Positions 3,230-64,000 are shown, counted from the first letter of the stretch. The stretch: 64,000 nucleotides of DNA from Deltaproteobacteria bacterium (GCA_016874835.1 VGTB01000001.1:5169-69168), one strand, 5' to 3'. Notes: generated from the letters alone by a model not told the origin. Program-made: numbers and translations.

Positions 3230-3306
<77 letters not shown>

Positions 3307-5303: not shown

Positions 5304-7881
5304 ATGAAAGATAAAGCAAAAACAAAAGAACAGCTCATCAGCGAATTAGCCGTATTGCGGAAGAGAATTGCCGATTTGGAAGGAGCAGAAGTAGATCATA
5401 AACAAACAGAGGCTGCCTTGAAGGCATCGGTCCTACAATGGCAGACAGTGTTTGATACCATTCATGACCCTATCTGTCTGCTGGATATTGAGGGAAAGAT
5501 TTTACGATGCAACAAAGCCATGAAAAATTTCTTAGGAAAAACACAGGAAGAAGTCGTTGGCCATACCTGCTGGGAGCTTGTACATGGTACGTCAAAACCC
5601 ATTGAAGGGTGTCCTATTGTGCAGATGAAGGAAACACTCCGAAGGGAAACGCTGATTCTGCAGCTGGATAACCGATGGGTTAACGTTATTGTAGACCCCC
5701 TGACGGATGCAACTGGCGCTCTCATTGGAGCAATTCATATTATCTCTGATGTGACCGAGCACAAGCAGACAGAGGAAACCGTTAAAAAGCAATTAGAAGA
5801 GATTACTTCCTACTACGACAATGCGCCCATTGGCCTGGCGGTATTAGACACCAGCTTGCGCTATCTCAGGATCAATAACCGACTGGCTGAGATCAACGGG
5901 ATTTCTGCAGCCAAGCATATTGGAAAAACGGTAGAAGAGATTGTACCGACACTGGCAACGCGAGCGAGAGAAATTATCTCTGAAATAATCAAAACCGGCG
6001 AGCCGATAACAGACGTAGAATTCAGAGGCGAAACAAAAGCACAACCAGGTGTCAAGCGCTACTGGCTGGAAGGGTGGTATCCGCTCAAGGATAAATAGCA
6101 TAGGGTCATTGGCTTTGTTGTGATGGTGCAGGACATCACCGAGCGTAAGATGATAGAAGACAATCTGCGCGAGAGCGAGGAGCGTTATCGCGCTCTATTT
6201 GAAAACTGCCTTGACGCGGTTTTGTTGACTGCTCCCGACGGCAGAATCCTGTCCGCCAACACCGCCGCCTGTCGGATGTTTGGACGGACAGAGCAAGAAA
6301 TCTGTCAGCTCGGGCTGAGTGGAATCGCGGACATAACAGATCCGCTCCTGCCTGTAGCTTTGACAGAACGTAGCCGTACAGGCAAATTCAGGGGCGAATT
6401 GACCTTTATTCGCAAAGACGGAACCAGGTTCCCAGGCGAGATATCTTCCGCGATTTTCAAGGATCAAGATGGTCATGACAGGACGAGCACGATTATTCGA
6501 GACGTTACCGAGCGCAAGCAGATGGAGGAAGTGCTGCGTGAGAGCAAGGAGAGATACCGTACGTTATTTGAAAGGACATCCAACCCCATCCTGGTCATAG
6601 ATACTGAGGGTAACTATGTCAGTTGCAACGAGGGGGTGCTCAAGTTCTTAGAATGCACACGCCATGAATTGCTGGAGAAAAATGTGCGCGACTTTATTCC
6701 ACCGGGCAAGGAGAGGCAAGTGATAGAGGATCACAAGGCTCTATGGGACGTTGGTGGAACTAGGGAAACTGAATACTATGTCCATGGCGAGGTCAAAAAT
6801 CTGGAATTGACCATCACTCCGGCAATATGGCATGGCAAGCGAGTGGTCTTTGGTATTGGAAAGGACATCACCAAGCGCAAGCAGTTAGAGAAAGCACTCC
6901 AGGAAAGCGAAGAACTGTACCGGGTTCTCACTGAGAAATCCATTGCCGGTGTTTACGTGGTGCAGGACGGCAAATTTCAATTCCTCAACAATAATGCCAT
7001 CGTGTACACAGGATACACAATAGAGGAGCTGATAGGGGCGAAAATGACGATTGTTGTCCACCCCGAAGACTGGGAACAGCTAAAGAGGTGTGTCAAAGAG
7101 ATGCTTCGTGGAGAACGGATGTCTCCCTACGAGTTCAGAATAATCACAAAAGAGGGACACATCCGGTGGTTCATGGAAACGGCCACATCAATCATCTGGA
7201 AACGGAGGCGGGCCGTTCTGGGGAATTGCATGGACATCACCGAGCGCAAGGCAGCGGAAGAAAAACTGCAGCTCTCCACGGAACGTCTCCGCAAGGTGTT
7301 CAGCGGCACCATCCAGGCTATCTCTGTGGCGGTGGAAACGAGAGACCCCTATACGGCAGGTCATCAGAAGAGGGTGACCGACCTGGCAAGGACTATTGCC
7401 AGCGAAATGGGACTTCCCGGTGAAACCATCGATGCTATCCGTCGATGCTGTCCGTATGGCGAGCCAGATTCACGACATCGGGAAGATCGCCATCCCTGCG
7501 GAGATACTTACCAAACCCTCGAAATTGACACCTGTGGAGTTCGAAATTATTAAGACCCATTCCCTGCGTGGTTATGATATCCTGAAAGATATCGAATTCG
7601 AATGGCCCCTTGCCCAGATTGTTTTGCAGCATCATGAGCGGATGGACGGCTCCGGGTACCCAAACGGATTAATCGGGGAAAATATCCTCATTGAGTCCCG
7701 GATTCTGGCGGTCGCCGATGTGGTGGAAGCTATGGCGTCTCATAGACCTTACCGGCCAGCTTTAGGCATTGATATGGTTCTGGAAGAAGTCACAAAGAAT
7801 AGAGGTTCCCTCTATGATCCAGAGGTGGCGGATGCATGCCTGAAAATATTCTATGAGAAGGACTATAAGATTGGAGCCTGA
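5304..7881 (+). pseudogene. Multi-PAS HD-GYP phosphodiesterase-type signalling protein, disrupted twice
   Basis: Track ORFs 5304-6098, 6120-7553 and 7396-7881 read as one protein. It has a coiled-coil N-terminus, repeated PAS modules ending in DIT(E/K)RK linkers, and a C-terminal HD-GYP domain (HDIGK ... HHERMDGSGYP). ORFs 1 and 2 share a frame and are split by TAG at 6096-6098. ORFs 2 and 3 are offset by +1 at a 13-bp tandem duplication. Confidence 0.75.
7429..7454 (+). repeat. 13-bp tandem duplication causing the HD-GYP frameshift
   Basis: tcgatgctatccg (7429-7441) is followed by tcgatgctgtccg (7442-7454) with one mismatch. Removing one copy restores ...GLPGETIDAVRMASQIHDIGKIAIP... Confidence 0.85.
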
Positions 7882-34705: not shown

Positions 34706-35173
34706 ATGATGGCGAAAGAATCAATTATCCAAAAGCTGAAAAAACGGGGATTAAGAATCACCCCTCAAAGACTCTCTATCATTAACGTGTTGGTCAAGAA
34801 GGGGCATCTTCATCCAGGTGCACGCTTCATATACAGAGAAGCGAAAAAGGAGGGCACCCGTCTGAGCCTGTCATCCGTCTACGAAAACATAAAGGAGCTA
34901 TGCCGGTGTGGAATTATCAAATCGCTTGAGTTTGATGGCAGAGAGAACCGCTGTGAGGGAAATCTTGAAGAGCACGTCAATCTTATCTGCGAACATTGCG
35001 GGAAGATTATTGATTACGAAGTCCCTGTTTCTTTAGATCAAAGAGAGGTGGCAAAAAGAACGGGCTTTATGATCACAAATAACAGGCTGGAGTATTACGG
35101 ATACTGCGCAGAATGTACTAAAGGCAAAGGGTGGTTACTTTCTGGTCGTAAACTGCACAGCACGCCTCTGTAA
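34706..35173 (+). CDS. Fur family transcriptional regulator (PerR-like by context)
   Basis: LRITPQRLSIINVL is a wHTH, and two CxxC pairs are present (CEHCGK, CAECTK). It sits directly upstream of katG. Confidence 0.8.
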   Translation: MMAKESIIQKLKKRGLRITPQRLSIINVLVKKGHLHPGARFIYREAKKEGTRLSLSSVYENIKELCRCGIIKSLEFDGRENRCEGNLEEHVNLICEHCGKIIDYEVPVSLDQREVAKRTGFMITNNRLEYYGYCAECTKGKGWLLSGRKLHSTPL

Positions 35174-35276
35174 ATGGGTTTCTGTGTTTTAATTTTTTGT
35201 TAATTAATCTGGAGTGGTTCCGGATAAAAGGAGAAAACGCTCAACTGAAGTGTAAAAACGAACATAATGTAAGTAA

Positions 35277-37496
<2,220 letters not shown>

Positions 37497-37680
37497 TCGT
37501 AGCATAAACGTCTTCGAGGACTTCCGACAGGATGGGATCTATACGTTGTATGGGACAGATGGGAAAATACCGACTGTTCAAGGACCGTCATCTTTTTTAC
37601 CCATTGGTCCGGTTTAGCAGGATTGGCAGGTGTGGGAAGAAAGTTTAAAAATAGAAAAGAAACTGATTTTTACCGTAGCA

Positions 37681-54700: not shown

Positions 54701-54977
54701 ATTAATCAGGAAGGTTCAGGAGAGAATAAGTGATTACCCTTCCAGGGACGTGGCATACGCGGTACTTGTGGTATTCGATGCGATGGTCAGGGCATTGATA
54801 AGAGGTGAGAGAATAGAAATCAGAGATTTTGGAAATATTACCGTCAGGCGTCGCAGATCGATACGGGGAAGAAATCCCAAGACGTCTGATATTATAGAAC
54901 TCCCCCCGAGGAAGATACCGTTCTTTAAAGTGGGGAAAGAGCTCTATGATATGATAAACGGCAGGAAGGGATTATGA
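54687..54977 (+). CDS. ihfB: Integration host factor beta subunit / HU family
   Basis: MTKSELI...[16 protein letters not shown]...FKVGKEL is present. The cmk-rpsA-ihfB order is as in E. coli. Confidence 0.8.
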
Positions 54978-55256
54978 ATAATCCCATTCGTTGTCTGGCG
55001 ATGCGAAATCCTTAAGTTGTTCCCGTCTCTTTTTGTGTTGCAGTTTCTTAAGAGCTTTGGCTTCTATTTGCCTTATCCTTTCACGGGTTACACCCATCAT
55101 TTCACCAACTTCTTCAAGGGTAAACGGTCCATAATTACAGGCGACCCAGGTGCAATTCAAAAAAGTCTCGTTTTTCAGTCGCCATTCACACGTGGTGTCC
55201 TGGCATATCTCTGATATCAGTTGGCCTGTTTTTTTACATTTATACGTGTTGATCAA
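54972..55256 (-). CDS. Small Cys-rich protein with sigma-70 region-4-like HTH
   Basis: The C-terminal [26 protein letters not shown] is a region 4.2 signature. The N-terminal 42 aa carry five Cys (positions 7, 18, 23, 35, 40). The 3' end overlaps ihfB by 6 nt, convergently. Confidence 0.6.
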
Positions 55257-55384: not shown

Positions 55385-56689
55385 TTATTCAGTATTTGTG
55401 TATTCCGTACGATTCCTAAGACGGCAAAGACGGTGAGTCAAGGCGTCTCTCTCGAGTATGCTTAATCTTGAAGACTTGAGAATTCCGCTCACAATATTAA
55501 TCGCCCCGTGAAAATCGTGAGCCCTGTGCTCGAACCACTTGGCCAGCTCTTCCGCGGCAAAAACATTCTCCGGATCGTTCTCCAGCATTGTCTCCCATAT
55601 TCTTATCGCTTCATTCCAGCGTCCGTCGCGTTTGTGCATCAATGAGAGCTTTTTCCTCGCTTCCAGGGCAATCATGGGATGTTCCGAGCTGATCAATGAA
55701 TCCAATAATTTTTTTGCATCTGTATAATACCCCCTGTTTAAGAGAAACCGGGTAACGGCTAAGAGATCGTGATGTCCCGTCTGTTCATTCTCGGGATCGC
55801 ATTTTGTCATTTCCGCTAAGTGAACCGCCAAAGCGGCCATGGATATCACATCGAGGCGGTTGTGTTCAAAGACATCTACCATCAGGCGTGGATCGCGTTT
55901 TCTCAGCCAGTTGAAGTATCGCATGGGGATTTCACTCGCCGGGAGATCGTCCTCACGGTGGAATTCAAGAACCTCTCTCTCAAGTGTGGAGAGCCGGCTG
56001 TTGTCTAAGCGATGGCCTAACAGACGGCGGGACGGATAGAGGAGATCCAGGTGAGGAAATCCGGAAAGGGGGTCCGGCAGCCGGTTCAAAATAAAGCGTG
56101 TTGTGAGGAGACCCACATCGAATACCTTGCCGTTAAATGTCACGAGAAAACGTTTTTCTCTAACAATATCGGTCAGAAATTTCAGGGAGGCCCGTTCTTC
56201 CGAGAAATCCCGTGCGAATATCTGTTTCGTGACGAATCTTTCATTATCGAACCAGCCGATTCCGATAAGGAAGACGAGTGTACCGGTGCCGCCGGAAAGA
56301 CCTGTCGTTTCCGTATCTAAAAACAGGGCGTCTCCGCAGTGGAAGCGAGAAAGATCAGGCCGATTTGCCAGGAGCGCGGCGGCATTCATATCCAGGGCGG
56401 AAATTTCGCTGATGCAACGTCGCCCGTGATAAGAGGAGCCGGAGTGAAGGCTATGGGCGACGAAGAATCTGCCGTACGTATTTTCCAATTCCTCCCCCTG
56501 AACCAGGTCCGATAATTCAGCGGCTCTGCCTTGATGTGCGGGGGGATGTGCGGTTGCGGTGTGAGGCCGGCGCGACATAACGGTTTCTATGCGCCGCCGG
56601 AGCTCGTTGATTTGATCGGCACGTGCCTGTTTTTCCTTCTCCGGGATCTGTTCGCCGGTAATGCGCCGCAGGCGCTTTATTGTGCTCAT
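55385..56689 (-). CDS. RNase H-fold DEDD exonuclease with C-terminal TPR region (YprB/MrfB-like)
   Basis: Exo motifs FLDTETTGL, FNGKVFD and HNRLDV are present, with C-terminal TPR-like helices. The start overlaps the helicase stop (ATGA). Confidence 0.7.
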   Translation of the reverse strand: MSTIKRLRRITGEQIPEKEKQARADQINELRRRIETVMSRRPHTATAHPPAHQGRAAELSDLVQGEELENTYGRFFVAHSLHSGSSYHGRRCISEISALDMNAAALLANRPDLSRFHCGDALFLDTETTGLSGGTGTLVFLIGIGWFDNERFVTKQIFARDFSEERASLKFLTDIVREKRFLVTFNGKVFDVGLLTTRFILNRLPDPLSGFPHLDLLYPSRRLLGHRLDNSRLSTLEREVLEFHREDDLPASEIPMRYFNWLRKRDPRLMVDVFEHNRLDVISMAALAVHLAEMTKCDPENEQTGHHDLLAVTRFLLNRGYYTDAKKLLDSLISSEHPMIALEARKKLSLMHKRDGRWNEAIRIWETMLENDPENVFAAEELAKWFEHRAHDFHGAINIVSGILKSSRLSILERDALTHRLCRLRNRTEYTNTE

Positions 56690-59058
56690 ATGTTCTCTGT
56701 TATCAGTTCAATGATTGCAAGGGCCGTTTCTTTTGCGGCTGGACCGACTTCGAGTACCGGGCCCACGCAGCTCGGGCATCCGTGGGTGCACGGGCAGCTC
56801 TCTATCAGATTGCGCGCCGAGGTCAGGAGACGGTCGTGTTCTTCGTAAAGGAGGTCTGAAAAACCGATTCCCCCGGGATACGCATCGAAGATGAATACGG
56901 TGGGGTCGAAGGCGTCAATCATTATGTCTGTCATACCCGGAGTGATTTTCGGCGACGCCGTGATGAGGCGCGATCCGGTTCCGTGGCGGACGAACCATTC
57001 ACCGCTCTTGTCGCCTATGCATCGGTCGATATCGTGTAAGTCCGCCATCAACAGCATCGCCGCCAGATGGTGGAGGCTGTATGCAAGTCCGGACAGGCCA
57101 TCGATGAGATCAGCCTGCGTGTAGGACAGACGATTCAGCAGGTCTCTCGGGATCGTAAACCAGTAGCTGGTCGTATGCATGTCTTTTTCCGGGAGGCTTA
57201 CATCACCGTAGCCGAGATTTTCCGAGGTATAAAACTTTATCTTTTTATATCCCACGACCTTGCGCACCACCTGCACCTCGCCGTGTTCGACGATTGTTTC
57301 TTTTCTCTGTTTACTGGAGAAGCTGTCAATGACACGGACGTTCGTGTAGGTCATGGCATCGGTGAAGTAGTCAACGTCGACCTTGCGGACGTACGCCGTC
57401 TTTCGTTCAAGATCCAACTTGTCCACGTGATACTGCTGCGATTCGACCATGTAGATGGCGTCATCATGGACGGTTGTGAAGGCGCTGTCCCAGTCCACCT
57501 CGGCGATGACCTGATGCGAGCCTGTTTCCGTCGTATCAACCACAACCACGTTCTCCGGATTGATACACCGGAGACTTACCTCATCCGCGGGGTAACTCTC
57601 CGCCGTCCAGTGCCACCGTTCATCAACCTTGTGCAGCACTCCTTTTTCTTCCAGATAGTTGAGGAGTTCCTCCAGATTTTCCTTGCCGAAAAGTTCTCCT
57701 TTCTCAAAAGGAAGCTCGAAGGCGGCACTCTTCAGGTGCTGGAGGAGAATGAGAAGGTTGTCGGGATTGATCCGGCAATGTTCGGGTGACTGGGAGAAAA
57801 AATACCCCGGATTTTCGACAATGAACTGATCCATGGGATTGCTCCGGGCGATCATGATGGCAAGACTATGTCCCGTCCTGCGTCCGGCTCTGCCGGCCTG
57901 CTGCCATGTACTGGCGATGGAACCGGGATACCCCACCATTATGCAGGATTCCAGATCTCCGATGTCGATGCCCAGTTCCAGCGCGTTGGTGCTCACCACA
58001 CCCATGACATCTCGGTCGCGCAACCCCTGTTCGATCTGTCTCCGGAGGTTGGGCAGATAACCGCCCCGGTAGCCCGTGACGAAATGCGTGTCGACCGGTT
58101 TTCCCTTTGAAAAACGGTCTTTCAGGTATTTGGTAAGAATCTCGACATTCAGGCGGCTCGTGGCAAAGATGATTGTCTGGACATCGTTTTCGATGAGTTT
58201 CGTTGCAACGATCCGGGCCGGTGTCATGGCAGACTGGCGGATGCCAAGTTCACGGTTGACGATGGGTGGGTTGTAGAGGATGAACGTCTTCGAAGCTCTC
58301 GGGGCACCGCTTTGCTCGATGAGCTCCACGGGCCTCTCAAGGAGGCGCTCCGCATGTTCCTTCGGGTTGGCAACAGTCGCGGAGCAGCAGATAAAGACGG
58401 GTTTTTGTCCATAAAAGCGGCATATCCTGACGAGACGCCTTATTACGTTTGTCAGATGCGAGCCGAAAACACCCCTGTAGATGTGAAGCTCGTCGATGAC
58501 AACGAATTTGAGATTGGCAAAGAGCTTCTGCCATTTGGTGTGGTGCGGAAGTATCCCCGTGTGAAGCATGTCGGGGTTGGTGACGACGACATGACCCTGC
58601 TTTCGGATTGCCTGGCGCGCATCGTCGGGGGTATCTCCGTCGTAGGTGTATGTCTTGATGTCGGTTCTCAGGTCGGTAATGAGACTGTGCACCTCGTGCA
58701 TCTGGTCCTGGGCCAGGGCCTTTGTGGGGAAAATATAGAGAGCCCGTGTTTCCGGTTCGTCAAGGATGCGATTTATGACCGGAAGGTTATAGCAGAGCGT
58801 CTTTCCGCTCGCCGTGGGAGTTACCAGGATGACATCACGGTGATTGTGTATGAGTTCTACAGCCTCCGTCTGGTGACTGTAGAGCTGAAAGATTCCGCGT
58901 TTCTTCAGGACCGATTGGATTCGGGGGTAAACCCAATCGGGAAAGGGGGTGAACCGGCCTTCAGAGGAAGGCATTTCCTTCAGCGCCCGGACATTTTCCA
59001 TGAACCGCCGGTCGTTTTCCATTCGGGATAAAAGTTCCTTGATGGACAACACAGACAT
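56686..59058 (-). CDS. DEAD/DEAH-box helicase with C-terminal DUF1998 zinc module (YprA/MrfA-like)
   Basis: Motif I is TPTASGKT, motif II VIDELH and motif VI QQAGRAGRR. The C-terminal four-Cys cluster is CPCTHGCPSCVGP. Confidence 0.85.
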   Translation of the reverse strand: MSVLSIKELLSRMENDRRFMENVRALKEMPSSEGRFTPFPDWVYPRIQSVLKKRGIFQLYSHQTEAVELIHNHRDVILVTPTASGKTLCYNLPVINRILDEPETRALYIFPTKALAQDQMHEVHSLITDLRTDIKTYTYDGDTPDDARQAIRKQGHVVVTNPDMLHTGILPHHTKWQKLFANLKFVVIDELHIYRGVFGSHLTNVIRRLVRICRFYGQKPVFICCSATVANPKEHAERLLERPVELIEQSGAPRASKTFILYNPPIVNRELGIRQSAMTPARIVATKLIENDVQTIIFATSRLNVEILTKYLKDRFSKGKPVDTHFVTGYRGGYLPNLRRQIEQGLRDRDVMGVVSTNALELGIDIGDLESCIMVGYPGSIASTWQQAGRAGRRTGHSLAIMIARSNPMDQFIVENPGYFFSQSPEHCRINPDNLLILLQHLKSAAFELPFEKGELFGKENLEELLNYLEEKGVLHKVDERWHWTAESYPADEVSLRCINPENVVVVDTTETGSHQVIAEVDWDSAFTTVHDDAIYMVESQQYHVDKLDLERKTAYVRKVDVDYFTDAMTYTNVRVIDSFSSKQRKETIVEHGEVQVVRKVVGYKKIKFYTSENLGYGDVSLPEKDMHTTSYWFTIPRDLLNRLSYTQADLIDGLSGLAYSLHHLAAMLLMADLHDIDRCIGDKSGEWFVRHGTGSRLITASPKITPGMTDIMIDAFDPTVFIFDAYPGGIGFSDLLYEEHDRLLTSARNLIESCPCTHGCPSCVGPVLEVGPAAKETALAIIELITENI

Positions 59059-59072
59059 GGCGACTGCTTATA

Positions 59073-59609
59073 CTACGTCTTCGAAAATTCTTCCACAACC
59101 TTTCTGTATTTTTCGTGGATCATATTTTTGTCAAATTCCCAGAACTCTTTGAGCATGGCGGCCTGTTCCTCGGCGGTGAAATAATCCAGAATGGGGAAAA
59201 AGAAGTGCTTATCCTCCTTTTCAATGTGCTTTGGATATAATTCGGAAAGCTCCCTCAGGCACGATATAACATCAGTGATACTGTTTTTATCGCCACCGAG
59301 ATATTTTCCATTGGCTTCCAGCAGTCTGCCTACGGTTTTCCGTGCGAAAATGTGTTCCTCCACCAGTTCCCGCATGGTTCTGTCATGATCCGGAGACAGG
59401 TTCTTTTTTTGGAGATCCCGGAAAAGGATATCTTCTTCTTTTCCGTGATGGGTTCGATCTGCATATGTTCTGAAGAAGTCAACGGCAGCGCTGATGAAGA
59501 CCGTATTGACAATGTTCTCCTCTTTGATTCTGTTTATTTCCCGTATGAACAAACCGGCCATCTTTTCAATCAGCCGGTGTTCCCACATCAAGGGCCCGAT
59601 TGGTTTCAT
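59073..59609 (-). CDS. Hemerythrin-like domain protein
   Basis: GPLMWEHRLI, HHGKEEDILF and HIEKEDKHFF provide the His/Glu di-iron ligand pattern. Confidence 0.75.
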   Translation of the reverse strand: MKPIGPLMWEHRLIEKMAGLFIREINRIKEENIVNTVFISAAVDFFRTYADRTHHGKEEDILFRDLQKKNLSPDHDRTMRELVEEHIFARKTVGRLLEANGKYLGGDKNSITDVISCLRELSELYPKHIEKEDKHFFFPILDYFTAEEQAAMLKEFWEFDKNMIHEKYRKVVEEFSKT

Positions 59610-59724
59610 GATACTTCCCTCGTTTTATCTAAAAATTATGTTGTCAAATCCGCCAGTCGTTATAACTCAACATGCCGGTCGGCAGGACAGGCGTCTCACC
59701 TGTCCCACCGGTTCCGATATCTCC

Positions 59725-61353
59725 TCATCCGAGTATTGTCTTCAGATCCTCTTCCGGCGTGGTAATCGGTTTGATGTTGAAATTTTTCACCAGGACGTCG
59801 AGTACATTAGGTGAAATAAAGGCCGGCAATGTCGGGCCGAGGCGGATGTTCTTGATTCCGAGTGCAAGCAGCGTGAGGAGAATGGCGACGGCCTTCTGCT
59901 CGTACCATGACAGGATCATGGAAAGGGGAAGGTCATTCACGCCGACGCCGAAGGCTTCGGAAAGAGCCACTGCGACCTGAATGGCCGAATACGCATCGTT
60001 GCACTGTCCTATATCAAGCAGACGGGGGATGCCGCCTATGTCACCGAGGTTCCTGTCAAAGAAACGGAATTTCCCGCAGGCCAGGGTGAGGACGACGCAG
60101 TCATTCGGTACCTGTTCCACGAATCTGGTGTAGTAATTGCGGCCCGGTTTGGCGCCATCACAACCCGCAACCAGAAAGAAATGGCGGATGTTTTTGTTCT
60201 TCACCGCGTCGATTATCTTGTCAGCGACGCTCAGAATGGCGTTCCTGCCGAATCCTGCCGTGACATACCTGCCGTTTGTGTCGGCGGTAAAGCCGGGGAG
60301 TTCCAGTGTTTTTTTGATCACCGGGGTGAAGTCCAGGTTCGAAATATGGGTAATATCGGGCCATCCCACCTGTCCTGAGGTAAATATGTTGTCTTTGTAG
60401 GAGGGCTGGGGCCGCTGAATGCAGTTTGTCGTCATGAGGATTGCCCCGGGGAACTCGGCGAACTCCTTCGCCTGGTTCTGCCAGGCCGTACCGTAATGAC
60501 CGTAAAAGTGTTCATACTTCTTGAGTCCCGGATAGCCGTGGCAGGGAAGCATTTCACCGTGGGTGTATACATAAATTCCCTTACCCTCGGTTTTCTTGAG
60601 GAGTTCTTCCAGATCCTTCAGGTCGTGCCCGGATACCAGGATCGCCTTTCCCTTCTTTGCACCTAAGGGTACCTTTGTCGGTGCGGGGTGACCGTAGGTG
60701 CCGGTATTAGCGGCATCCAGGAGTTCCATGGCTTTCAGGTTCGTTTCACCGCATTTAAGAACAAGATCCAGAGACTCTTCGAGATTTAAATTTTCATTCT
60801 CAAGTGCCGCCAGTCCCTCATGGATGAATGCATAGACGACCTCATCCTCCTTGCCCAGAATCCGGGCATGATCCGCATACGCAGCGATGCCTCGCAGTCC
60901 GAACAGGAGGATGTGCTTCAATGAAAGAATATCGGGATTCGCGGCAGGGTAGGATTTCAGGCCGACTTTCTCACCCTGCGCAACCAGAGCTTCGAGCGTA
61001 TCGGCCGGCTGGAAGAGAACAGAGCTCCGAGACAGATCTACCTTTCCGCTTGCGGTCCTGACTTCCTCAATCAAAGTATCCCTGTATGTCACACATTGAT
61101 GAATCACAGGGGCGAAACGTGCGGGATCGAAGTTGACGTTGGTCACGGTGGTAAAAAGGGCCTCGCAGGTAAACACATTGATGTTGGGATTACTGATACC
61201 GACCTTTCTCGCCTGGACAGCGACAAGCGAAAGACCGGTCAGGGCATACGTCAATAAATCCTGCAGGGAGGCGACATCCGGCTGTTTCCCACACACCCCG
61301 GATTTCATGCATCCTTCACCTTTTGCGGTTTGTTCACATTGGTAGCAAAACAT
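59725..61353 (-). CDS. hcp: Hybrid cluster protein / hydroxylamine reductase
   Basis: It has the N-terminal MFCYQCEQTAKGEGC cysteine motif, is ~540 aa, and has the conserved CG.FR region. Confidence 0.95.
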   Translation of the reverse strand: MFCYQCEQTAKGEGCMKSGVCGKQPDVASLQDLLTYALTGLSLVAVQARKVGISNPNINVFTCEALFTTVTNVNFDPARFAPVIHQCVTYRDTLIEEVRTASGKVDLSRSSVLFQPADTLEALVAQGEKVGLKSYPAANPDILSLKHILLFGLRGIAAYADHARILGKEDEVVYAFIHEGLAALENENLNLEESLDLVLKCGETNLKAMELLDAANTGTYGHPAPTKVPLGAKKGKAILVSGHDLKDLEELLKKTEGKGIYVYTHGEMLPCHGYPGLKKYEHFYGHYGTAWQNQAKEFAEFPGAILMTTNCIQRPQPSYKDNIFTSGQVGWPDITHISNLDFTPVIKKTLELPGFTADTNGRYVTAGFGRNAILSVADKIIDAVKNKNIRHFFLVAGCDGAKPGRNYYTRFVEQVPNDCVVLTLACGKFRFFDRNLGDIGGIPRLLDIGQCNDAYSAIQVAVALSEAFGVGVNDLPLSMILSWYEQKAVAILLTLLALGIKNIRLGPTLPAFISPNVLDVLVKNFNIKPITTPEEDLKTILG

Positions 61354-61412
61354 AATGGCCTCCTTTCAAAAAATCTTACGGCCTCTTATGTCATGACGGT
61401 TCACAGATGTCC

Positions 61413-61426
61413 TTGACCTATGTCAA
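61413..61426. promoter_or_regulatory. CRP/FNR-family binding-site-like palindrome upstream of hcp
   Basis: TTGAC-CTAT-GTCAA is a perfect palindrome centred ~66 nt upstream of the hcp ATG. Confidence 0.6.
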
Positions 61427-61447: not shown

Positions 61448-61735
61448 TTATTTTTTGAAAAGAGCTTCCAGTTTATCTCTCGCTGCATCTTTGCCCCCCT
61501 TTGCCAAATCATCGGGATGGGTATCTCGGAAGACGAAATAATCGCAGAAGGTGCTGCGATCCTTGTCGAGCACTCTGTCCGCCTGCGTTTCCCGGCACTG
61601 GTTGTATACCCCCGGGTCGTAGTGGCGGCAGTTGAGGCAGCACCTGAGTTCGGCACTGCAGAAGGGGCAGACGTCTTTCCTCCCGATTGTTTTGTTGAGG
61701 ACAGCCTCTTTTTTACACTTATGACAGATCTTCAT
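61448..61735 (-). CDS. Small Cys-rich (zinc-ribbon-like) protein
   Basis: [10 protein letters not shown]...[18 protein letters not shown]....FCDYF has nine Cys in ~70 aa. ATG 61735 overlaps the upstream stop as ATGA, which I prefer over the track start at 61753. Confidence 0.5.
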
Positions 61736-62259
61736 GCTAACGTAAATCTCCACCGGCAGAACACATTATCAGGCCGCGGGTCCGGTGGTGCGAAAAGGCA
61801 TTCCACCTGGATTCGCTCATCGATGATACGGGCGAAATTCGTAAATTCGTGGCGGTGCATCTCTTTGCAGGAGAACTCCGGCAATCCTCGCGCGATCCTG
61901 GCGGCCTGAGTTGCACAATGAGGCACGGTGATAATGACCTCGTCTTCCTTTTCTTCGATTTCGTATCCGATAATGATGCTCCATGGGAAGAACTTCTGGG
62001 CTTTTACAAAACCGCGTAGTCCTTTTTCTTCGATCCGGAAACGCTGACGGATATCTCTGGCTGCCATTCCCGCGACCTTTGTCCAGACCCTCTCATTAAT
62101 CTTTTCTGCCGTTTGCTGATCGAACGCGTCCGATACGAAGAGAAACCAGAATCCGTCAACCACCCGGTAATGCCAGAGAAGAAACTCCAGGTAGCTCTTC
62201 ACCTCGGAAAGAGTCATCTCCTCAAACAGGGAAAGATCCATGGGCTGCACTTTCTTCAT
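61732..62259 (-). CDS. Hypothetical protein (no family recognised with confidence)
   Basis: The ORF has coding-like composition. The start at Met14 (62259) lies 1 nt after the cupin stop and is preceded by GAGGAA. Confidence 0.45.
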
Positions 62260-62260
62260 G

Positions 62261-62581
62261 TTATCGGTATTCCTCCCTGACGGGGTAAAAGGCATCAATA
62301 AGCTGGGAGTCAGTAATCGATTTACCCTTGTGTTTTACATTTGCTGGAATGACTACCACCGATCCCGGCTCCATGATTCTTGTTTCACCATCGGCCGTCA
62401 ATTCGAACGAACCTGAAATCACCGTGGTAATCTGCTCATGGGGATGGGAATGTTCCGGCAGGAGAGAACCGGCTTTAACGTTCCAGAACGCAAAGGTCAT
62501 GTTCTGGGAATGCACCATCTTTGCTCTGAACCCCGGTACAATCTCTCTTTCCTTCACATCTGATAAATTAATGAATGCCAT
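62261..62581 (-). CDS. Cupin domain protein
   Basis: [18 protein letters not shown]...VVIPANVKH are cupin motifs 1 and 2. AGGAGG precedes the ATG. Confidence 0.8.
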
Positions 62582-62624: not shown

Positions 62625-63257
62625 CTATAATCGGGAAAGTCTTATAATTTCCTGTCTGATTTCTTCAATAACCTCTGGATTGTGAATAATCTTCTTTTTT
62701 CCCTCAGTAAGGGAAATGATGTAGAATACCTTACCACCGTATGTGGCGGTGAATTTCTCATGAGTTTCTTTCTGAAAATTAAGTTCGTTGATTATCTGGG
62801 TAATGTAGGCGTGACCTGCCGGTTTAATTTGCAGACCGATGTATCTGTCTTTTACTTTGATGAAGAAATCGACGTTATATTTTCTGTCCCATTCATCCGG
62901 TGCGGGTTCAATCTTGACACCTAATGCCTGTTCCAATTGTCCGTATATGGTTTGTATTTCTGATTGATAACCGTCGTATGTTCTATTGATTACCAAATTG
63001 ATCACAAAATCAATACAATCCTGCTCCGTAATACTGTCAATTTCGGCTTTGCATACTTCGCTGATCTTGATAAACAACTCACGTCCTATCTGTTCCAAAT
63101 GCGCGTGAGAACGGACATGTTTAAAGTAATATTGTTCCCAATCCTTTAAAGATTTAGGACCGCATTTTCTGATTTCCACTGCAACTTTCCCGACTCTCCT
63201 GGGTCTGTTGAACTGCCACCGCATATTCGCCTGGTTCACTATCCACTCTTTCGGCAT
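62625..63257 (-). CDS. Type II restriction endonuclease, MjaI-family-like
   Basis: It is adjacent to and translationally coupled with a methyltransferase (TAATG overlap). The N-terminal KEWIVNQANMRWQFN and the core YNVDFFIKV..YIGLQIKP (D...Q/ExK-like) resemble the MjaI family as I remember it. The gene is AT-rich. Confidence 0.5.
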   Translation of the reverse strand: MPKEWIVNQANMRWQFNRPRRVGKVAVEIRKCGPKSLKDWEQYYFKHVRSHAHLEQIGRELFIKISEVCKAEIDSITEQDCIDFVINLVINRTYDGYQSEIQTIYGQLEQALGVKIEPAPDEWDRKYNVDFFIKVKDRYIGLQIKPAGHAYITQIINELNFQKETHEKFTATYGGKVFYIISLTEGKKKIIHNPEVIEEIRQEIIRLSRL

Positions 63258-64000
63258 TATTTGGTTGCCCTTTCGGATAAAAATTTTGATTTGTATTTAT
63301 AATCAAAAGTAGTATCGACGTCCACGAATCCGCTTTTTATGAGATGGGCGTTGATAAATGTTTTGTTCCACAAATAGAGATAGCAAAGCAGGTTATTACT
63401 CTCATCATATTTGACATGATCGAATTTTAAGAACACCTTTTGTCCGTGGAGCTTGTTTCTTAAAAACTGAAGAGCCTCTCCATTTTCATCATGCCGTGCT
63501 TTCACGCCAAGAAGCCTGATTCTCAGGCCGTTATTTAGGATGAGAACCTCGGGGGTGAGTATTTCCTTCACAGTGTAGTAGGTTTCTCTCTCTGTACTTG
63601 ATTTGTCGATTTTCGAGCCAAATTGGAGTTGTTTAGGATCGACCTTTTTATCGAAACGAATCGGGTCTTTGAAAGTGTAAGGCAGCTTTTTTATCTCATC
63701 CTTGAAATCTTTGAAAGAATCTTTCTGCTTAACAATTTCGAAGGTCGATTCCTGAAATAATGTACCCTGCGTTAGTCCAAGTTTTTCTTTTATGATCGGC
63801 AAGAATCCTTCATTGATTTCATATCCGATTGAATTTCTGGAAAGATTTTTAGCTGCTAAAGCTGTCGTGCCGCTTCCCAAAAACGGATCCAAAACGGTGT
63901 CTCCTACAAAACTGAACATCTTGATCAGCCTCCGTGGCAATTCTTCCGGGAACATTGCCAGGTGCTGATCCTGTTTCTCACCGGCAAAATTCCAATGGCC
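63257..64000 (-). CDS. DNA methyltransferase (N4/N6 beta-class) with C-terminal SNase-like domain, 5' end outside window
   Basis: The frame is open to nt 64000 (..GHWNFAGEKQDQHLAMFPEELPRRLI..). The AdoMet motif is VLDPFLGSGTT. The C-terminal ~110 aa have a thermonuclease-like pattern (LRIRLLGV...LLCYLYL..FINAHLIKSGFV). Confidence 0.8.
   Translation of the reverse strand, partial: GHWNFAGEKQDQHLAMFPEELPRRLIKMFSFVGDTVLDPFLGSGTTALAAKNLSRNSIGYEINEGFLPIIKEKLGLTQGTLFQESTFEIVKQKDSFKDFKDEIKKLPYTFKDPIRFDKKVDPKQLQFGSKIDKSSTERETYYTVKEILTPEVLILNNGLRIRLLGVKARHDENGEALQFLRNKLHGQKVFLKFDHVKYDESNNLLCYLYLWNKTFINAHLIKSGFVDVDTTFDYKYKSKFLSERATK

Follow-up and report, generated by a model that had tools for sequence, protein, structure and literature searches.

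The 64-kb stretch of DNA from a Deltaproteobacteria bacterium analysed here (64,000 nt; GCA_016874835.1, VGTB01000001.1:5169-69168; hereafter the window) carries a cluster of four minus-strand genes: hcp, a hemerythrin-like gene, and orthologues of the Bacillus subtilis genes mrfA (yprA) and mrfB (yprB), which encode a helicase and an exonuclease (Table 1). A preliminary description of this DNA proposed that the helicase-nuclease pair may be co-transcribed and co-regulated with the two genes upstream of it, which were regarded as a nitrosative-stress module, and that the cluster may be a dedicated response to DNA lesions derived from nitric oxide (NO). Its account of the layout, with 115 nt between hcp and the hemerythrin gene, 14 nt between the hemerythrin gene and mrfA, and a 4-nt overlap (ATGA) between the mrfA stop codon and the mrfB start codon, agreed exactly with our open reading frame (ORF) listing and our reading of the sequence. 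All four gene identities were also upheld by domain, family, and structure-sequence matches.

Table 1. Features of the hcp-hemerythrin-mrfA-mrfB region, with positions counted from the first nucleotide of the window
Feature	Position	Strand	Description
hcp	59725-61353	-	542 aa; hybrid cluster protein/hydroxylamine reductase; from the ORF listing
Hemerythrin-like (HHE) di-iron protein gene	59073-59609	-	178 aa; uncharacterised subfamily; from the ORF listing
mrfA (yprA) orthologue	56686-59058	-	790 aa; SF2 DExH helicase with winged-helix (WH) and MZB/DUF1998 domains
mrfB (yprB) orthologue	55385-56689	-	434 aa; DEDDh-type 3'-5' exonuclease with C-terminal TPR
HcpR/FNR-type palindrome	61413-61426	-	TTGACATAGGTCAA; centre approximately 66 nt 5' of the hcp ATG
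GC-rich 14-bp hairpin	59680-59710	-	Begins 14 nt past the hcp stop codon; terminator-like or transcript-stabilising
Hemerythrin-mrfA junction	59059-59072	-	14 nt; TAG TATAAGCAGTCGCC ATG; no Shine-Dalgarno sequence, no hairpin
Promoter-like TTGTGG-17 nt-TAGTAT	59070-59098	-	Predicted promoter; overlaps the hemerythrin stop codon

Identity of the four gene products

The helicase aligned with B. subtilis YprA/MrfA (PDB 6ZNP) over query residues 8-678 and 719-784 (E = 2e-245), and the Pfam models DEAD (PF00270, E = 6e-35), Helicase_C (PF00271, E = 1e-14), WHD_HRQ1 (E = 2e-9), and MZB/DUF1998 (PF09369, E = 1e-14) matched it. MrfA homologues are defined by a DExH core, the C-terminal domain, and four cysteines (Burby & Simmons; Roske et al.). 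The window protein contains a Walker A GKT at residue 83, DELH at 189, QQAGRAGR at 386, and the four-cysteine motif CPCTHGCPSC at 755-765, and on these sequence features it is an MrfA homologue. Two observations favour M1 as its start: relatives conserve residues 1-20, and the alignment with B. subtilis MrfA begins at residue 8. A start at M20 (771 aa) was chosen by some gene callers. An insertion of approximately 28 aa relative to B. subtilis MrfA was observed in the MZB region (query 679-718), where it separates the last OB/CON segment from the four-cysteine motif, corresponds to the gap in the 6ZNP alignment, and holds an extra cysteine, C680.

The nuclease contains an RNase_H_2 domain (PF13482) at residues 122-291 and TPR_14 at residues 343-384, and matched the MrfB exonuclease core structure (PDB 8UN9) with an E value of 1e-31. 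A profile built from 35 Syntrophales MrfB sequences matched 8UN9 with an E value of 1e-41 and extended to query residue 81, which corresponds to approximately residue 62 of the B. subtilis protein. In the 8UN9 alignment, D125, E127, D191, H276, and D280 correspond to D107, E109, D172, H258, and D262 of B. subtilis MrfB, and all five were invariant in the 35 Syntrophales homologues. Since conservation of the catalytic residues is the published criterion for MrfB homology (Burby & Simmons), the window nuclease is, by its sequence, an MrfB homologue. The preliminary description was unable to assign an N-terminal extension of approximately 110 aa in this protein. That extension proved to be a standard feature of the family, only approximately 18 aa longer than in Bacillus, because 106 residues precede D107 in B. 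subtilis MrfB as well (residues 1-32 predicted to be unstructured, and 33-279 forming the crystallised core with an "N-terminal insertion") and because the profile alignment reaches into this region and a motif within it is conserved. The motif, RLxRLTGE...ELRRRI at residues 6-35, was near-invariant among the 35 relatives aligned and could be recognised in 56/56 extracted N-termini; its basic character and strong conservation agree with the contact that has been proposed with the winged-helix domain of MrfA.

The hcp product matched Prismane (PF03063, E = 1e-174) and, over its full length, the family models NF003658 (830.6 bits, against an equivalog cut-off of 367) and TIGR01703 (763 bits), and direct reading of the translation revealed a CxxCx8Cx5C motif near its N-terminus. 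The window contains a second ORF of 542 aa, which encodes a flavoprotein and not Hcp.

The hemerythrin-like protein matched PF01814 at residues 10-137 (E = 9e-12), and its likely His/Glu ligand columns (H11, H54/H55, E58/E59, H86, H128, E132, H165, and E166) were invariant in 25 homologues. The AlphaFold (AF2) model was a helical bundle with a pLDDT of 86, whose closest folds in the PDB were PF0695 (3CAX), NMB1532 (2P0N), and the hemerythrin domain of FBXL5; the first two are uncharacterised hemerythrin-like proteins. Taken together, the domain match, the ligand columns, and the model indicate that the protein is a predicted HHE four-helix bundle. No NCBIfam family and, in a sequence search, no PDB entry matched it. 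The preliminary description cited YtfE/RIC as an example of such a protein; we rejected this identity, since the protein has no ScdA_N domain and no match to the NCBIfam RIC models, and RIC structures were not among the top folds. Instead, it belongs to a large family of hemerythrin-domain proteins of approximately 178 aa that occur in many unrelated contexts. The GC content of its gene is 0.445 compared with 0.53-0.54 in the neighbouring genes, a difference that is not decisive for a separate origin. Because predicted HcpR regulons often hold hemerythrin-like genes (Rodionov et al., PMC1274295), the proximity of hcp and a hemerythrin gene is not new in itself.

Regulatory signals in the cluster

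The palindrome approximately 60 nt upstream of hcp, TTGACATAGGTCAA, is the sole exact match to TTGAC-N4-GTCAA in the 64-kb window, in which 0.12 matches are expected, and it fits the FNR-like consensus of delta-proteobacterial HcpR, wyTTGACnnnnGTCAArw (Rodionov et al. 2005, PMC1274295). The box was conserved in every related locus for which the region upstream of hcp was available, 11 loci in all, among them L002, L004-L008, L083, L084, L090, and L091; it was degenerate in L003, where hcp is a 29-codon remnant. The FNR/CRP-type palindrome that had been noticed before hcp was thus confirmed. No such box preceded the hemerythrin gene or mrfA in any locus examined, and a Pfam scan of the ten window ORFs of 200-260 aa detected no regulator of the CRP/FNR (HcpR) family.

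A second conserved signal follows hcp. The RNA of positions 59600-59735 (136 nt), which includes the hairpin in Table 1, was predicted to fold with a free energy of -40.9 kcal/mol (z = -3.5), and 0 of 200 shuffled sequences were as stable. Hairpins of 9-14 bp occupy the same position after hcp in L002, L005-L008, L083, L084, and L090-L093; their sequences differ while the pairing is preserved, indicating covariation. A clean U-tract is missing from the window hairpin. It had been stated earlier that no hairpin plus T-tract separates the hemerythrin and helicase genes; this holds for the 14-nt spacer, where our terminator scan was empty, but the informative junction is that between hcp and the hemerythrin gene, at which the conserved hairpin lies. 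With the box only before hcp and the hairpin after it, induction of mrfAB by NO would depend on read-through of the hairpin.

In the rest of the region, signals were few. Promoter and terminator scans of 54.9-62.7 kb gave counts equal to the shuffle expectation, with no strong promoter inside the cluster and no convincing terminator 3' of mrfB. At the gathering threshold, Rfam detected no known RNA element in the spacers, its sole match being a tRNA at 3230-3303. The 14-nt junction between the hemerythrin gene and mrfA has no Shine-Dalgarno sequence and is too short for a terminator; in this genome, hemerythrin-mrfA-mrfB is therefore very probably expressed as a single unit, as judged from the sequence.

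Distribution of the gene order and relics of the hemerythrin gene

The helicase-side survey, a scan of one genome per GTDB species, yielded 80 Syntrophales loci with 74-88% helicase identity, to which the window proteins were compared by tblastn. The hemerythrin-side survey consisted of individual context look-ups and a metagenome scan. The conserved pair is mrfA-mrfB, with mrfB directly after mrfA in 59 of the 75 informative Syntrophales loci. Among the helicase-side loci, hcp was found 5' of mrfA only in L002, L004-L008, and L039, apart from the remnant in L003, and the hemerythrin gene only in L011; the 64 other Syntrophales mrfA loci had neither linkage. The upstream neighbour of mrfA in those loci was variable and mostly divergent (nitroreductase-ferredoxin genes, PAS kinases, DUF6036, or an AAA_21 protein).

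Two arrangements without the hemerythrin gene were observed. In L002 and L039 the gene is deleted and hcp is followed directly by mrfA, at 142 nt and 74 nt, respectively. In L001 and L003-L008 its place is taken by tag, an opposite-strand gene of 190 codons encoding DNA-3-methyladenine glycosylase I (PF03352, E = 6e-78), which converges with hcp and diverges from mrfA (for example, L006 7099-7677, minus strand). Since tag lies on the opposite strand between hcp and mrfA, co-transcription of hcp and mrfAB is impossible in these seven species. The hcp gene has also decayed: L081 has none, L003 keeps just the remnant, and the copy in L004 is frameshifted.

The linkage from which the preliminary description argued does recur in other genomes, in that the order hcp-hemerythrin-mrfAB was found in the window, L083, L084, L090, and L091-L093, on at least eight distinct contigs, but it is limited to a single shallow clade, inside which it has eroded. 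All hemerythrin homologues of at least 74% identity (L011, L081/L082, L083, L084/L085, and L090-L093) have mrfA as the next gene on the same strand, 4-83 nt away, and most have hcp upstream; the order in L081/L082 is cupin, Zn-ribbon, hemerythrin, mrfA, and mrfB, with no hcp and no box. Neither hcp nor mrfA was near any of the 76 metagenome homologues with 59-71% identity, and four individually examined homologues (63-68% identity) lay in unrelated contexts, again with neither gene. Isochorismatase/NAPRTase, FeoB, and rubrerythrin genes were among the neighbours of these homologues of at most 71% identity (n = 80). In a neighbour-joining (NJ) tree of MrfA, the loci linked to hcp or hemerythrin all grouped in a single shallow Syntrophales clade, in which hemerythrin was present in the deeper branches (L011, L081, window/L090, and L084) and absent from L039, L002, and the tag group. 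The simplest history suggested by these sequences is a single origin of hcp-hemerythrin-mrfAB, after which hemerythrin disappeared approximately three times and hcp at least twice, by loss or decay.

The region upstream of mrfA retains traces of this history. The last ~40 nt of the hemerythrin gene encode ...LVEEYERG* in L083, L091, and L092, and species that have no hemerythrin gene keep this 3' stretch as a non-coding block, AAATATGTTGTAGAAGAATGAGAAAGGGGGTAAATAGAC. The block (~40 nt, KYVVEE*) lies ~100-130 nt 5' of mrfA in L001-L008 (e.g., L006 7828-7865; the window equivalent is 59066-59104), and it is also present at the 3' ends of the intact hemerythrin genes in L083, L091, and L092. It is 91-99% identical among seven hemerythrin-less species, whereas the adjoining columns are 24-40% identical downstream and 55-70% upstream, and its layout resembles a sigma-70 promoter (TTGTAG/TTGTGG, 17 nt, TAAATA). 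Because the block was kept while its flanks diverged, it is probably a promoter or operator of mrfA, or of the divergent tag/mrfA pair; an mrfA-proximal control element thus appears to reside within the 3' end of the hemerythrin gene.

The hemerythrin-mrfA junction itself measures 4-83 nt in relatives, with the 4-nt spacer in L081, and GGAG precedes the mrfA ATG in those relatives with longer spacers for which upstream sequence is shown. In the lineage of the window and L090, the region downstream of the block, that is, the mrfA 5' region, appears to have been deleted, so that mrfA would now rely either on being coupled to the hemerythrin cistron or on starting almost without a leader. Relatives carry GGTAAAT/ATTTACC inverted repeats in the 5' region of mrfA, as in L003 at 6650-6710 (GGGGTAAAT-N32-ATTTACCCC), and ATTTACT-N15-AGTAAAT lies directly 5' of mrfA in L011 and L039. 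These repeats could be an operator or a hairpin of the 5' untranslated region (UTR); they are missing from the window, in which the spacer is only 14 nt.

Interpretation and relation to known systems

We lean towards the reading that three known modules came to lie side by side through rearrangement in one Syntrophales sublineage, and not that they constitute a dedicated repair system for NO lesions. According to this reading, hcp would be driven by an HcpR/FNR-type activator site with class II-like spacing and a candidate -10 element, CATAAG, approximately 22 nt downstream, and its transcript would largely end, or be stabilised, at the conserved hairpin 14 nt past the stop codon. The hemerythrin gene, mrfA, and mrfB would form a tricistronic unit in this genome. 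The deletion would have removed the mrfA 5' region, such that mrfA starts 14 nt past the hemerythrin stop codon without a ribosome-binding site and is probably translated by termination-reinitiation; alternatively, it may be read from a near-leaderless transcript that starts at TTGTGG-17-TAGTAT. Translation of mrfB would be coupled to that of mrfA via the ATGA overlap. The two products, a predicted 3'-5' helicase and a predicted 3'-5' DEDDh exonuclease, would act as in B. subtilis, in the UvrABC-independent excision of bulky guanine adducts.

Since the adjacency arose once, in a shallow clade, and was repeatedly broken, inherited gene order is a likelier explanation than dedicated repair of NO damage, which we consider improbable for this cluster. 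Some NO-dependent expression of mrfAB by read-through is possible, but it has not been preserved by selection. What does exist, in one clade, is a hemerythrin-led variant of the mrfAB operon. Several observations weigh against our preference. The post-hcp hairpin has no clean U-tract, and read-through from the HcpR-dependent promoter could therefore be substantial; hcp adjacency is kept in most clade members; and hemerythrin of at least 74% identity always precedes mrfA, even where hcp is missing (L081), which could reflect a real partnership between hemerythrin and MrfAB. Moreover, the gene that replaces hemerythrin in the sister species, tag, also functions in DNA repair, and its substrates can arise from nitrosation chemistry.

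A single HcpR-controlled operon from hcp to mrfB, through which nitrosative stress induces MrfAB against NO-derived lesions (for example, N2-guanine adducts or nitrosation-derived alkylation), seems unlikely to us. The chemistry lends itself to the idea, since the N2 position of guanine is modified both by mitomycin C and by nitrous acid or NO. Four co-directional genes with short gaps and no canonical terminator, headed by an HcpR-type box, also suit an operon of this kind, but a strong conserved hairpin follows hcp and no locus has a box before the hemerythrin gene or mrfA. Although the order recurs in the window, L083, L084, L090, and L091-L093, the linkage is confined to one clade and is absent at 64 other Syntrophales mrfA loci, and L081 retains hemerythrin-mrfAB without hcp or the box. 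A repair gene, tag, occupies the same spot in the sister species; however, being on the opposite strand, it parts hcp from mrfA in seven of them. The frequent presence of hemerythrin-like genes in HcpR regulons (PMC1274295) and the open question of the natural MrfAB target (PMC7797055) are compatible with such an operon, whereas no link of YprA/DUF1998 helicases to hcp, NO, or nitrosative stress was found in the literature searched. With respect to the co-transcription and co-regulation proposed earlier, hemerythrin and mrfA are very likely co-transcribed, but the box lies only at hcp and the hairpin comes directly after it.

It is rather doubtful that MrfAB was recruited into a nitrosative-stress locus in a looser manner, with hemerythrin-mrfA-mrfB fed by read-through from the hcp promoter and hemerythrin acting as an NO- or iron-sensing or protective partner. 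If this were true, what MrfAB naturally acts on in anaerobes would be guanine lesions arising from nitrosation or NO, and not those of mitomycin C. The way in which MrfAB finds its lesions, and the damage it repairs in organisms other than Bacillus, are open questions (PMC7797055; Burby & Simmons), for which a stable genomic link with NO-stress genes would have provided a natural substrate that could be tested. The link described here is real but shallow and repeatedly broken; it offers a weak lead and is no evidence that a dedicated pathway exists.

Hemerythrin could also be an accessory of MrfAB independent of hcp, sensing O2, NO, or iron, or protecting a metal centre, and thereby tuning or protecting the Zn-Cys4 helicase; we regard this as no less doubtful. 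The orthologues of at least 74% identity all lie 4-83 nt 5' of mrfA in the same orientation, including those in the hcp-less L081/L082, and the shrinkage of the junction to 14 nt in the window and 4 nt in L081 suggests translational coupling. Nevertheless, hemerythrin was lost approximately three times within the clade while mrfAB was kept, homologues of at most 71% identity never adjoin mrfA, and the metagenome-assembled genome (MAG) containing L015 and L086 has a hemerythrin homologue and mrfAB on different contigs.

An anti-phage module related to DISARM, Druantia, or Dpd is a highly improbable reading of the helicase-nuclease pair, and we rejected a role in defence because the PADLOC matches reach only the generic helicase core, system partners are missing, and the pair falls in the MrfAB repair branch. 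Although the PADLOC models SngC, BrxH, DruE, DrmA, and DpdF matched the helicase, they covered only the generic SF2 core (residues ~45-400), and the best full-length match was B. subtilis MrfA (E = 2e-245). Among the six proteins scanned, the neighbours had no meaningful PADLOC match and the nuclease had a marginal match to a DEDDh model (E = 0.006, 15 bits); no DrmB, DrmC, Dru, or Dpd partners lie beside the helicase. In a survey of the YprA family, a repair branch, in which YprA occurs alone or with MrfB, is set apart from a defence branch, and the MrfB partner places the window pair in the former (preprint 10.1101/2025.09.15.676423). The pair also sits in a housekeeping neighbourhood (rpsA, sppA, and ihfB) that is conserved across many species. 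The preliminary description had already judged a defence role less likely, which the PADLOC scan and the branch assignment bore out. Its statement that no methylase is adjacent is true of the immediate neighbours, but a type II restriction-modification (R-M) system, comprising an MjaI-type restriction enzyme and a methyltransferase, lies 1.3 kb upstream of hcp and counts in favour of defence.

This system occupies 62625-63955 (minus strand). Its restriction endonuclease belongs to the MjaI family (PF09568, E = 4e-41), with the methyltransferase gene next upstream. The C-terminal part of the methyltransferase contains a staphylococcal-nuclease-like domain (PF01555 + PF00565), and its gene runs past the window end. 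Three small genes part the R-M pair from hcp, and no system-level relation to the helicase was apparent. These genes, located directly upstream of hcp in overlapping frames (61448-62581, minus strand), encode a cupin (106 aa), a DUF6125 protein (188 aa), and a Cys-rich Zn-ribbon-like protein (101 aa); they are syntenic with hcp in most clade members and abut hemerythrin directly in L081.

On the other side of the cluster, a 94-aa protein is encoded at 54972-55256 (minus strand). It consists of a Cys-rich N-terminus (C7, C18, C23, C35, and C40) and, of the sigma-70 domains, only region 4, with a sequence close to region 4.2 of RpoD (PF04545, E = 1.6e-13). The protein is 83-100% identical across ~18 Syntrophales loci, always just 3' of mrfB, and its gene is preceded by the best sigma-70-like promoter of the scanned region, TTGACA-17-TAATAT (55339 to 55311). 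From its sequence, it could be a small region-4 mimic or a transcription modulator. Farther away, the GC content rises to 0.54-0.63 at 35000-37500, against a window mean of 0.48, over an ORF of 737 aa (35283-37496), which may represent foreign DNA or a compositionally unusual gene.

Compared with known systems, the window helicase shares the SF2 core and a DUF1998-type C-terminal module with DISARM DrmA, Druantia DruE, and the Dpd helicases, but it is paired with MrfB and has neither their defence partners nor their inserted domains. Mycobacterium smegmatis SftH (TIGR03817) belongs to the same MrfA family; however, the window helicase scored 658 bits, below the model cut-off of 874, and SftH-type genes have no MrfB partner. 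Like Escherichia coli YtfE/RIC, the hemerythrin is an HHE di-iron four-helix bundle, as predicted, and adjoins a nitrosative-stress gene, but it has no ScdA_N domain and falls in the separate ~178-aa family. The HcpR-hcp regulon (PMC1274295) likewise combines a wyTTGACnnnnGTCAArw site 5' of a class-I-type hcp with a hemerythrin-like gene nearby; in the window, by contrast, the hemerythrin gene lacks its own site and is followed by a DNA-repair pair, and no HcpR/CRP regulator was present among the ten mid-sized ORFs screened.

The closest counterpart by sequence is the MrfA/MrfB mitomycin repair pair of B. subtilis. In the strictly anaerobic syntroph studied here, the pair differs from it in having hemerythrin as the leading cistron 14 nt upstream and hcp next door, an insertion of ~28 aa in the MZB region of MrfA, and an MrfB N-terminus that is ~18 aa longer. 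The domain architectures are the same in both organisms: MrfA can be aligned from end to end, including the DExH and four-cysteine MZB motifs; MrfB shares the five DEDDh residues, the N-terminal region, and the TPR tail; and the two genes are adjacent and coupled.

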